From IMG/VR virus record IMGVR_UViG_3300037047_000121: a stretch of DNA of 64,000 bases. One strand, written 5' to 3'. Numbering within the stretch: the first letter of the stretch is position 1; each line of letters starts with the position of its first letter. Source of the DNA: a virus. Below the pieces are notes generated by a model that did no database searches, was not told the DNA's origin, and was given only the letters and a program-made list of their open reading frames with translations. Of the stretch, positions 55,323 to 57,528 are shown in pieces. A program made the position numbers and the translations under genes.

Positions 55323-55805
55323 ATGTTTCCCATCCAGATCAGTTGGCCCAGATGGAAAGACGTTTGGTCGCACGTCAAGAAACAGACCCGCATCTATTTT
55401 GCGTTCCGGGGTACTCGCGTAGATCGTCTGCACGCCGACTCTGGGACCATTCCCATCAACCAGAACTACACCCTTTACATTGCACGGGATGGGTCGTGCC
55501 CCGGGGGGTTGACCCTAGATGTCAAGAAATTCGTGGATCAGGGGCTTTTGAAACCTGTGATCCCGGGGGTCTCGCTCTTACTGAAAAACAGACCTGCTCC
55601 GCGTCCCGCAACGTCGACGATCAGCCCGAAATTCCAGTACCGTCAGAGAACGGTCTTGCGGCCCCCCGTAACGAGTGAGGAGAAGCAACGTTTTGACAAA
55701 GAGATCCAGGAGTGGTTCGAGTCCGAGGGACTTTCATCGGACGATGCACAGTGGTTTTCCAGGTGCCTCGCAGACTCTACGGTGCTGGAGAAATCGGCAC
55801 CGTGA
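55323..55805 (+). CDS. hypothetical protein (160 aa)
   Basis: ATG with AGGAGG RBS between MVP and RNase genes. Confidence 0.5.
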   Translation: MFPIQISWPRWKDVWSHVKKQTRIYFAFRGTRVDRLHADSGTIPINQNYTLYIARDGSCPGGLTLDVKKFVDQGLLKPVIPGVSLLLKNRPAPRPATSTISPKFQYRQRTVLRPPVTSEEKQRFDKEIQEWFESEGLSSDDAQWFSRCLADSTVLEKSAP

Positions 55806-57528
55806 TGAGCCCGATCTGTTGAGCTAGCAAGAGGGCGGCCTCCGTTTTGGCTGCTTTTTTGGTGCCCCTCGCCGCTGACGTGGCCTTGTGTGCCCCGATT
55901 TTTACGGTCGCCCGAAACATCGGGGGATTGTCCCCATCCTGAGAGGCCGTGAACTCCGGACAAAAACGGTGTTGTTGTGCCCACTCCATGATCACACCCA
56001 CAGGGTTGGACACGTCCTGTACCGGACTCGGGACAGAGTTGCTCTCAAAAGTGGCATCAGCGCCAAGCAAATGCTTCACCAGAGACACCGCAGCGTTCTG
56101 TTTGGCGTTTTTGATGTTTGGGCCAGATCCGGATCCTGTGCGTTCCTCGTTCTGGAATGAGACGGTCACCGAGACTCGAAAATGACGCCCCGTTTTGGTT
56201 TGGGCAAACGTCGGTTCCGTCCAAATGCCCAGCGTGAACCCAATAGCCAGTACAGTTACGGCATGATTGGGGTACTCCGAGAGATACCGGAAAAGTTCTC
56301 CTCTGATAGGACCCCACTGAGAATCATTCCGGGGGGTCTCAAACAGAATGTAGTACACATCCAAGAGTGCTAACGTGTTGGCCCGGATGCGCAACCGGAC
56401 GGCTTCCGTCAAACCCTCGTGGTACGATCCTGCGCGAACCACGGTTTTGACAAGGCGCTCGAACTCCTTGGGTTTCAGTTCCGCCATGTATTTCGGCTGC
56501 ATGCGTTCCGCGTTTTTCTCCGCACGCTCCGTAGCACGCTGTTTGAGCGCCTCCGACCAGTTGGCTCTTTTCGCCCGTAACACATGGTTGATGTGTTCTG
56601 CGATCTCCGCCAGTTCATCTCTAGAGTAAGGGTACTCGGAACCCGTCAGATGGGCTAGCAACTGGCGCTGTGTCACAAGGTCAGCATACCGTCGGATCGG
56701 AGATGTGCAGTGCGTGTAGGCTGGAAGTGAAAGCCCGAAGTGTCCTTTCAGTACCGAACTGTACTCCGCTTTGTTCAGCACCATGTGGGTCTGCGCCCGG
56801 ACAAAGTCGACAGACTGCACCCCGGAGCGAGCCAACGAAAACTGATCCAGTAACACCTGACGTTCCGGAGCGTGGGCTTTGGCGGTATGGTTTCGGAACA
56901 GGATCGGGATTTCATTCTCCGCACAGTACGCACCCACTGCAGCACTGGCCAGGATCATCATCTCCTGAACGATGATGTAACCGACGTTGGCGCGTGACCG
57001 CTCCAAACGCAGAAGGAAACCCTCCTCGTTCGTGTACCAGCCATCATTCAGATCGTAAAAGACCAAATCCCCCCGTGATCGGCGTATTTCCAGTAGTCCG
57101 AGCGCCGTTCGTTCCGCAAGCCGCAAAACCTCGTTCCCCGGGTGGGAACGATCCATCAAGATCCCGGGGATGTCCTCGTAAGCAAGTTTGGCTTTCGAGG
57201 AGATCCGGACGGGTTCCAAGTGAACCCCGAGTAGATCGTAACCCTCCCCGAGTCGGCACTGGATCAGTAGAGCCTCATGGGAAACTCTTTCCAGCAGTGA
57301 GAGATCCCGGAGGGTCAAATCCCAGGGGAGCATGGGATCGCAGCCGTGGTTGTAATACCGGGACTCCACCATCTCCCGGGCGGCGGAATCGGCTGAGTGG
57401 TTGCGCGGGACCATCCTTGCTACGTTGGCGATGTAAACGGAAACAACCGTTTCGCTTTCCGACTGGGAGACCCAGATCGCATCGTCCAAGTCCCGGGAAC
57501 TACGGTCGTCGATGGTGAAGCAGTCCAT
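55777..57528 (-). CDS. RNase II/R-family (RNB domain) exoribonuclease fused to two C-terminal dsRBD-like domains
   Basis: RNB motifs DLDDAI and HFGLSLPAYTHCTSPIRRYADLVTQRQL; dsRBD-like GSGSGPNIKNAKQNAAVSLVKHL and GAHKATSAARGTKKAAKTEAALLLAQQIG. Confidence 0.75.
   Translation of the reverse strand: MDCFTIDDRSSRDLDDAIWVSQSESETVVSVYIANVARMVPRNHSADSAAREMVESRYYNHGCDPMLPWDLTLRDLSLLERVSHEALLIQCRLGEGYDLLGVHLEPVRISSKAKLAYEDIPGILMDRSHPGNEVLRLAERTALGLLEIRRSRGDLVFYDLNDGWYTNEEGFLLRLERSRANVGYIIVQEMMILASAAVGAYCAENEIPILFRNHTAKAHAPERQVLLDQFSLARSGVQSVDFVRAQTHMVLNKAEYSSVLKGHFGLSLPAYTHCTSPIRRYADLVTQRQLLAHLTGSEYPYSRDELAEIAEHINHVLRAKRANWSEALKQRATERAEKNAERMQPKYMAELKPKEFERLVKTVVRAGSYHEGLTEAVRLRIRANTLALLDVYYILFETPRNDSQWGPIRGELFRYLSEYPNHAVTVLAIGFTLGIWTEPTFAQTKTGRHFRVSVTVSFQNEERTGSGSGPNIKNAKQNAAVSLVKHLLGADATFESNSVPSPVQDVSNPVGVIMEWAQQHRFCPEFTASQDGDNPPMFRATVKIGAHKATSAARGTKKAAKTEAALLLAQQIGLITVPISPAP

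Follow-up and report, generated by a model that had tools for sequence, protein, structure and literature searches.

A putative RNB exoribonuclease carrying two double-stranded RNA-binding domains in phage-like DNA and its relatives on very large contigs

The 64,000 nucleotides (nt) analyzed here from IMG/VR virus record IMGVR_UViG_3300037047_000121 (hereafter, the window) encode, on the minus strand, a complete protein of 583 amino acids (aa) in which an RNB catalytic domain is followed by a helical region and two double-stranded RNA-binding domains (dsRBDs). A first-pass annotation had described this gene as encoding an RNB exoribonuclease that ends in two fused dsRBDs; sequence profiles, the predicted fold and a structural search all uphold that description; the four peptide strings quoted in support of it are all found in the 583-aa open reading frame (ORF). 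We consider the domain identification (RNB plus two dsRBDs) to be secure. The gene and its parts are as follows.

55777..57528, minus strand: RNB-dsRBD gene, complete, 583 aa, ATG start, stop codon at 55777-55779 (ORF list)
57532..57537, minus strand: Shine-Dalgarno-like GGAGGA, 3 nt 5' of the ATG, read from the sequence
56644..57525, minus strand: RNB catalytic domain, residues 2-295 (Pfam PF00773, E 8.9e-50, profile positions 8-325 of 326)
57481..57510, minus strand: RNB motif I, residues 7-16 (DDRSSRDLDD), aligned to TIDGxxxxDxDDA of RNase R
56677..56742, minus strand: RNB motif IV, residues 263-284 (HFGLSLPAYTHCTSPIRRYADL), aligned to GHFGL...HFTSPIRRYPDL of RNase R
56275..56622, minus strand: all-helical region, residues 303-418
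56068..56271, minus strand: first dsRBD (dsRBD1), residues 420-487, the less canonical of the two
56017..56058, minus strand: flexible linker between the dsRBDs, residues 491-504
55816..56004, minus strand: second dsRBD (dsRBD2), residues 509-571, of the canonical type

The GGAGGA element supports the annotated start as well as a bacterial-type host. The protein begins directly at RNB motif I and aligns collinearly over its full length with 27 homologues of 577-616 aa, none of which has a domain-bearing N-terminal extension. Consistent with the earlier statement that S1 and cold-shock domains are missing, no cold-shock, S1 or other oligonucleotide/oligosaccharide-binding (OB) fold family was found in the 583-aa protein by Pfam and NCBIfam profiles even at E <= 1, nor were cold-shock domains (CSDs) or S1 found in any of the 27 aligned homologues. 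An AlphaFold2 model of the whole protein, built from a 28-sequence alignment, had a mean predicted local distance difference test score (pLDDT) of 91.3 and a predicted template modeling score of 0.71, and a second model of residues 300-583 alone gave the same C-terminal layout (pLDDT 91.7).

The RNB fold occupies approximately residues 1-300 of the model and, in Foldseek searches, matches RNase R (5xgu/8cdv), Dis3L2 and Rrp44 at E ~1e-19. Its catalytic residues are very strongly conserved in an alignment of 109 full-length relatives, the source of all residue counts given here. That is, the metal-binding aspartates of motif I (D7, D13, D15 and D16) are aspartate in 108-109 of the relatives, H263, S276, P277, R279, R280 and D283 of motif IV are each present in all 109, and R212, H214 and Y256 are likewise kept in 108-109. 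For comparison, a Mg2+ ion is held by D272/D281 in E. coli RNase R (PMC5714204). The near-invariance of the catalytic aspartates and of R279/R280 indicates selection on catalysis, and the protein is probably an active 3'-5' exoribonuclease. It is not, however, a member of the named RNase R and RNase II groups, as its scores are far under the equivalog cut-offs of NCBIfam: 145.7 vs. 597.85 bits for TIGR02063, 79.8 vs. 982 for NF008648, 81.9 vs. 542 for NF003455, and 66.9 vs. 641.9 for TIGR02062.

Downstream of the RNB domain, AlphaFold2 predicts (pLDDT mostly >88) helices at residues 303-342, 345-349, 353-366, 371-382, 388-397 and 403-418, for which no Pfam family was found at E < 0.05. The long first helix extends the end of the RNB domain, and residues ~345-418 form a basic bundle. 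An alignment to B. subtilis RNase R sets the helical region opposite the start of the S1 domain, the boundary of which we place by our own reading of the alignment. The helical bundle is therefore predicted to take the S1 position of RNase II/R, and it has its own family-conserved residues (F356, E357, R358, K361, R365 and W405).

Both C-terminal segments were modeled with the alpha-beta-beta-beta-alpha fold that the first-pass annotation had anticipated, and its suggested profile scan for RNB and dsrm recovered both domains. In the whole-protein Pfam scan, dsrm (PF00035) matched in two stretches (E 5.4e-15), and each dsRBD scanned alone scored above the dsrm gathering cut-off of 23 bits. For dsRBD1 (helix 420-432, strands 440-446, 449-458 and 461-469, helix 472-487), residues 415-492 gave 31.2 bits over profile positions 24-66 only, helix 1 being unmatched; its conserved residues are K473 (93 lysine and 11 arginine among the 109), A475, Q477 and A479, and its basic motif is limited to I-K473-N-A-K476. 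For dsRBD2 (helix 509-519, strands 525-531, 537-544 and 547-550, helix 557-571), residues 502-583 gave 33.8 bits over positions 1-62 of 66; the basic motif is K557-K558-A-A-K561, and E515 (101/109), K557 (108/109) and K561 (106/109) are conserved, together with Q518, G532, P536 and A560. The linker between the two domains has pLDDT <50 in both models, and its length differs among homologues. From the conserved RNA-contact residues of the dsRBDs, we reasonably infer that the substrates would be structured RNA or double-stranded RNA (dsRNA).

The architecture had been called unusual, which is correct in that no characterized RNase II/R enzyme shares it. Rare it is not, however: in a search of 5.8 billion proteins, 115 of the 120 best homologues (~590 aa) carried RNB plus dsrm. 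Most of the best homologues are 577-650 aa long and share 33-43% identity over 83-99% of the query; within the subfamily, homology reaches E 1e-97 to 3e-133 (35-43% identity, 93-99% of the query) and includes the helical insert. The C-terminal 284 aa, used as a HMMER query, matched 284 clusters (at 50% identity) at E <= 1e-3 and 84 at E <= 1e-10. Among the 150 clusters listed, the match nearly always starts at residue 300-350 of proteins of 550-900 aa, which ties the C-terminal module to the RNB domain. Hence, the RNB-dsRBD combination is no one-off but marks a family that, clustered at 50% identity, comprises about 150 clusters or more, and a third dsRBD seems to be present in some of the proteins. 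A separate search of genome contigs used universal RNB motifs; the matches listed were mostly ordinary RNase R, and among them only one, from a Chthonomonadaceae metagenome-assembled genome (MAG; L087), matched through residue 487.

Family members have been deposited as "RNB domain-containing ribonuclease", "3'-to-5' exoribonuclease RNase R" and "Exoribonuclease R" (Methanosarcina spp. and Methanocella conradii); two further named members come from MAGs, one labeled "Spirochaetes bacterium" and the other Polyangiales. Among 50,697 GenBank phage records, no locus covered >= 80% of the query, and the viral structures of BFVD included RNB-only or dsRBD-only proteins but none with an RNB domain and tandem dsRBDs. 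In a neighbor-joining tree without support values, P0007 and P0011 are grouped with the window protein, beside a phage group (P0002-P0010), and the sequences from Methanosarcina and Methanocella all fall into a single compact clade within a wider metagenomic, often phage-like, diversity. This topology would fit exchange, in either direction, between viruses and Methanosarcinales. The architecture is thus already visible to automatic annotation, yet unstudied; we found no earlier mention, in the literature searched, of its recurrence in huge-phage-like contigs, and the main text of a published huge-phage survey does not mention ribonucleases.

Comparison with known enzymes clarifies what is shared and what is not. 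The closest characterized enzymes, RNase R and RNase II of bacteria (E. coli, B. subtilis and M. genitalium; PDB 5xgu, 8cdu, 7dcy and 2ix1), have in common with it the catalytic core alone, a homologous RNB domain (~25% identity over ~360 aligned residues, phmmer E 5.5e-20) with the same motif I aspartates and motif IV arginine, and by this homology, processive 3'-5' hydrolysis to nucleoside 5'-monophosphates is expected. Unlike these enzymes, the phage protein has no CSD1, CSD2, S1, helix-turn-helix or K/R-rich domain; instead, the helical bundle at the S1 position is followed by the two dsRBDs, and the tri-helix wedge region is shorter. Named full-length relatives include the 'RNB domain-containing ribonuclease' proteins of Methanosarcina spp. 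and Methanocella conradii (WP_014404876 / UniProt H8I934), which have the same architecture in 587-606 aa (34-37% identity, E 1e-83 to 1e-98, with 96-98% of the query aligned) but are cellular, unlike the phage-like window; our literature search found no characterization of these archaeal proteins. The RNase R homologue of Haloferax volcanii is not known to carry dsRBDs. It is a purified and assayed RNB-family exoribonuclease (Portnoy and Schuster 2006, PMC1635327) that is essential and is no better than PNPase on structured RNA, and it exemplifies, outside the bacterial RNase R/II model systems, that most of the RNA-degrading activity in a cell can come from a divergent RNB enzyme (PMC1635327). 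In RNase III, Dicer/DCL, TARBP2, HYL1 and Loquacious, dsRBDs serve endonucleases or non-catalytic cofactors, whereas here they are fused to what would be a processive exonuclease. Finally, giant eukaryotic viruses (Klosneuvirinae, Bodo saltans virus and CroV) encode Rrp44/Dis3-like RNB proteins (Foldseek E 1e-11 to 1e-16), the match being limited to the RNB part with template modeling scores <= 0.46.

The DNA around the gene appears to be part of a large tailed phage, judging from the following genes of the window and their family matches.

58019-59245, minus strand: virion structural protein (phrog_1645, E 4.5e-81)
62475-63404, minus strand: RIIB-like protein (phrog_609, E 3.4e-64)
55323-55805, plus strand: ORF of 160 aa with its own AGGAGG ribosome-binding site, also called by the Joint Genome Institute (JGI) on contig L167
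52593-55211, minus strand: vault-like protein, 872 aa, with a major vault protein (MVP) shoulder domain (E 6e-21) and a vault repeat
28627-29499, plus strand: protein of 290 aa with a weak match to extracytoplasmic function (ECF) sigma factor / HTH_23 (E 1.7e-5)

The virion structural protein, the best GenBank relatives of which come from 'Virus Rctr197k' (35% identity), the cyanomyophages S-RIM8 and S-SRM01, and a 595-kb uncultured phage, is encoded upstream of the nuclease gene, and together with the RIIB-like protein it points to a large myovirus-like phage. A 137-aa ORFan lies in between; we considered it as a detached RNA-binding domain and rejected this idea, since it has no Pfam or PHROG family and does not resemble the small ORF upstream of the gene in one of the related loci (L001). 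On the other side, the 160-aa ORF, which is without a Pfam or PHROG family, converges on the nuclease gene and shares 29 nt with its 3' end, so antisense RNA is expected across that end; a promoter/terminator scan of 55000-59400 gave no signal above shuffled expectation. Four further genes of the window (46988-48831, 60127-60702, 24978-26636) concern RNA or nucleotide metabolism: one for PhoH (E 1e-82), one for an inosine-uridine nucleoside hydrolase, one for an Rv2179c-like 3'-5' exoribonuclease and one for a protein of 552 aa that has an RNA-ligase domain. Combined with the RNB-dsRBD nuclease, they suggest a toolkit for the turnover and repair of RNA. Most large ORFs of the window have no family match, no transfer RNA (tRNA) genes were found in its 64 kb, and megablast of 19 kb of it returned no nucleotide-level match to GenBank phages. 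A 5.5-kb JGI metagenome contig (L167) carries a gene for the identical protein with the same two downstream neighbors. The 290-aa ECF-sigma-like ORF lies inside the sole 2-kb stretch of strongly positive GC skew (+0.27 at 28001-30000).

The 872-aa vault-like protein is collinear with eukaryotic MVP (residues 504-785 vs. 467-763 of the 861-aa MVP, E ~1e-13) and has homologues of 38-64% identity on 12 IMG/VR contigs, one of 318 kb. A functional link with the nuclease was considered and set aside, as none of these 12 loci had an RNB-dsRBD gene in the sequence fetched. A vault-shell-like protein in phages seems to merit separate study.

The loci of relatives were classified as phage-like when they showed dense small ORFans and genes such as ThyX, dCTP deaminase, T5orf172, GIY-YIG, GH25 lysozyme and sigma factors. 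They are listed below by protein and locus.

P0005 (L001): 70-kb contig, phage-like
P0008 (L002): 163-kb contig, phage-like
P0007 (L003, with a shorter copy, L004): 58-kb contig, "Spirochaetes" MAG protein, phage-like
P0010 (L006): 518-kb contig from groundwater, phage-like
P0064 (L169): 418-kb contig, protein present on 17 contigs, phage-like
P0033 (L168): 764-kb contig (ENA ERZ25039587 contig_58339, 763,830 bp), phage-like
L007: 536-kb IMG/VR uncultivated virus genome, viral per IMG/VR
L008: 437-kb IMG/VR uncultivated virus genome, viral per IMG/VR
P0027 (L005), Methanocella conradii: 185-kb MAG contig, cellular, with CDC48, SecDF and MoeA as neighbors

Besides the window, all eight non-archaeal loci examined are phage-like, on contigs of 58-764 kb, five of them at 418-764 kb; P0254, a cluster member with the Methanocella protein, lies on the 2.38-Mb HZ254 chromosome, and for the Methanosarcina protein P0051 a look-up gave no contig that encodes it. 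The framing of the protein as a bacterial enzyme, which the first-pass annotation had adopted, is therefore abandoned: the window and its nearest relatives are phage-like, several of the latter on contigs of 418-764 kb. The largest contig (L168) has small ORFans, a GH25 lysozyme and two sigma factors as local genes, and a cluster member (P0260) lies on a contig of 761,794 bp. The maximum phage size in Al-Shayeb et al. 2020 is reportedly 735 kb, which L168, if wholly phage, would exceed.

Genes for nucleotide metabolism recur near the RNB-dsRBD gene in these loci. A dCTP deaminase gene directly adjoins it in L001 and L006 and is one gene off in L003/L004, a dCMP deaminase gene is one gene off in L002, and ThyX lies within 3-9 kb in L001, L002, L003, L006 and L007. 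Other genes also recur: DUF7487 in six loci (L001, L002, L003/L004 counted as one, L006, L007 and L169), and a protein of 825-839 aa with a VWA domain in L001, L002, L003/L004 and L006, the same four that have the dCTP/dCMP deaminase. ThyX and T5orf172, neither of them seen in L169, are also part of this recurring gene set of huge-phage-like contigs, and L006 also has PARP-domain and DndB-like genes. We examined whether the ~830-aa VWA proteins are vault-related and rejected this, as Pfam gives VWA and TPR only. A conserved operon partner was likewise sought by tblastn of 14 window neighbors against 6 and then 167 fetched loci, of which only the identical JGI contig shared any. With no neighbor conserved across lineages, the gene is best described as a stand-alone accessory gene.

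Based on the intact RNB site, the two dsRBD folds, the absence of OB folds and the phage setting, all of which are observed, we think it fairly probable that the gene encodes a phage-carried, stand-alone, hydrolytic 3'-5' RNB exoribonuclease that is tethered by its dsRBDs to duplex-rich RNA and degrades structured RNA of the host. Under this hypothesis, the dsRBDs, chiefly the canonical dsRBD2, would dock the enzyme on A-form duplex RNA and thereby raise its local concentration on ribosomal RNA (rRNA), tRNA, terminator hairpins and sense-antisense duplexes. From there, the RNB core, which is uncapped, would take a nearby 3' end and digest processively to nucleoside 5'-monophosphates. During infection, the enzyme would break down structured RNAs of the host, with the large rRNA pool as the most plausible target, and so contribute to host shut-off and supply nucleotides for phage DNA synthesis, although this role is less certain than the mechanism. 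It derives from the neighborhood pattern described above and from the argument that, where phage progeny can amount to more DNA than the host chromosome, the rRNA pool would be the largest nucleotide reserve to draw on.

Several observations weigh against this hypothesis or parts of it. In the RNB domain, the counterpart of the tri-helix wedge, which comprises residues 487-545 of E. coli RNase R and is required for unwinding (PMC5714204), is ~20 residues shorter, with two predicted helices (223-234 and 240-250), so the ability to unwind duplexes is uncertain. In the dsRBDs, the beta1-beta2 loop of dsRBD1 lacks 4 residues that most relatives have, and the histidine of the GPxH motif of dsRBD2, found in 73 of the 109 members, is N534 here; both changes may lower the affinity for dsRNA below the family consensus. 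The evidence for nucleotide salvage comes solely from the gene neighborhood of relatives, and even there L168 and L169 have no nucleotide-metabolism neighbors, while the immediate neighbors in the window (the virion protein, two ORFans and the vault-like protein) are common to none of the other loci. Further, the cellular Methanosarcinales members show that the fold is not bound to a phage-specific role. Finally, our literature search found no paper describing RNB-dsRBD proteins or giving biochemical data for any family member.

Alternatively, the enzyme might remove dsRNA that arises from convergent or overlapping phage transcription, or structured host defense RNAs, and thus keep RNA-sensing defenses or RNase III-type damage untriggered, as a phage counterpart of the hiding or removal of dsRNA by eukaryotic viruses. 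This is the main rival explanation, and it is favored by the two dsRBDs with conserved duplex-contact residues, by the expected sense-antisense RNA where the gene overlaps the convergent 160-aa ORF, and by the recurrence of the family on very large phage-like contigs; the dsRBD-fold matches in BFVD also include poxvirus proteins of the PKR-inhibitor type. However, no defense or anti-defense gene was consistently adjacent in the relatives' loci examined, and no bacterial dsRNA sensor is tied to these loci. An exonuclease also requires a 3' end, the shortened wedge may limit action on long perfect duplexes, and the cellular Methanosarcina orthologues argue for general RNA turnover. For these reasons, we consider dsRNA clearance unlikely to be the principal function.

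A role in RNA maturation, in which the enzyme trims the 3' ends of tRNA precursors, small RNAs or rRNA while its dsRBDs read the acceptor or terminal stem, seems quite improbable. RNase II/R-family enzymes are involved in tRNA and rRNA 3' processing according to the literature, and the RNA-ligase-domain protein and second 3'-5' exoribonuclease of the window hint at a repair or processing toolkit. Huge phages also commonly carry many tRNAs, as reportedly found by Al-Shayeb 2020, which would count in favor of such a role. Yet the 64-kb window has no tRNA gene, all characterized RNB-fold enzymes degrade RNA processively, and the neighbors in related loci are genes for deoxynucleoside triphosphate synthesis, not tRNA genes. 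Also quite unlikely is that the dsRBD-fold domains, or at least dsRBD1, act as protein-protein or dimerization modules, which would make the protein an ordinary single-strand-specific exoribonuclease with a partner-recruiting C-terminus: E515, K557 and K561 are kept at 93-99% in the family, a signature of RNA-binding dsRBDs, and no conserved partner gene adjoins. Last, a housekeeping RNase R/II paralogue of a bacterial chromosome, as the JGI label 'ribonuclease R' of the identical protein would have it, or a dead pseudonuclease like yeast Ssd1, which is among the Foldseek matches to the RNB fold, is strongly disfavored by the sub-cut-off equivalog scores, the phage-like character of the window throughout, and the intact, invariant catalytic residues.

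Going beyond the preferred reading of a dsRBD-tethered nuclease that degrades structured host RNA, it is tempting to speculate, with considerable doubt, that RNB-dsRBD proteins are a signature accessory enzyme of huge phages and the first processive exoribonucleases guided by dsRNA recognition, used for mining rRNA or erasing phage dsRNA, with the Methanosarcinales copy acquired through exchange with such viruses. If true, rRNA mining would meet the nucleotide demand of replicating genomes of 0.4-0.8 Mb, or, in the alternative use, phage dsRNA would be removed before host RNA sensors detect it.

In conclusion, what has been missing for these proteins is functional study and recognition of the link to huge phages. 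To our knowledge, all mechanistic understanding of RNase II/R presumes a funnel of OB folds (CSD1, CSD2 and S1) that selects single-stranded 3' ends, whereas the family described here swaps the three OB folds for duplex-binding modules while the catalytic residues stay strictly conserved. A dsRNA-directed exonuclease could also help to strip dsRNA by-products from in-vitro-transcribed RNA. If active, the family would offer a natural test of how an RNB core gains its choice of substrate, and it would represent a route for phages with very large genomes to the biggest nucleotide reserve of the cell or to the control of dsRNA.

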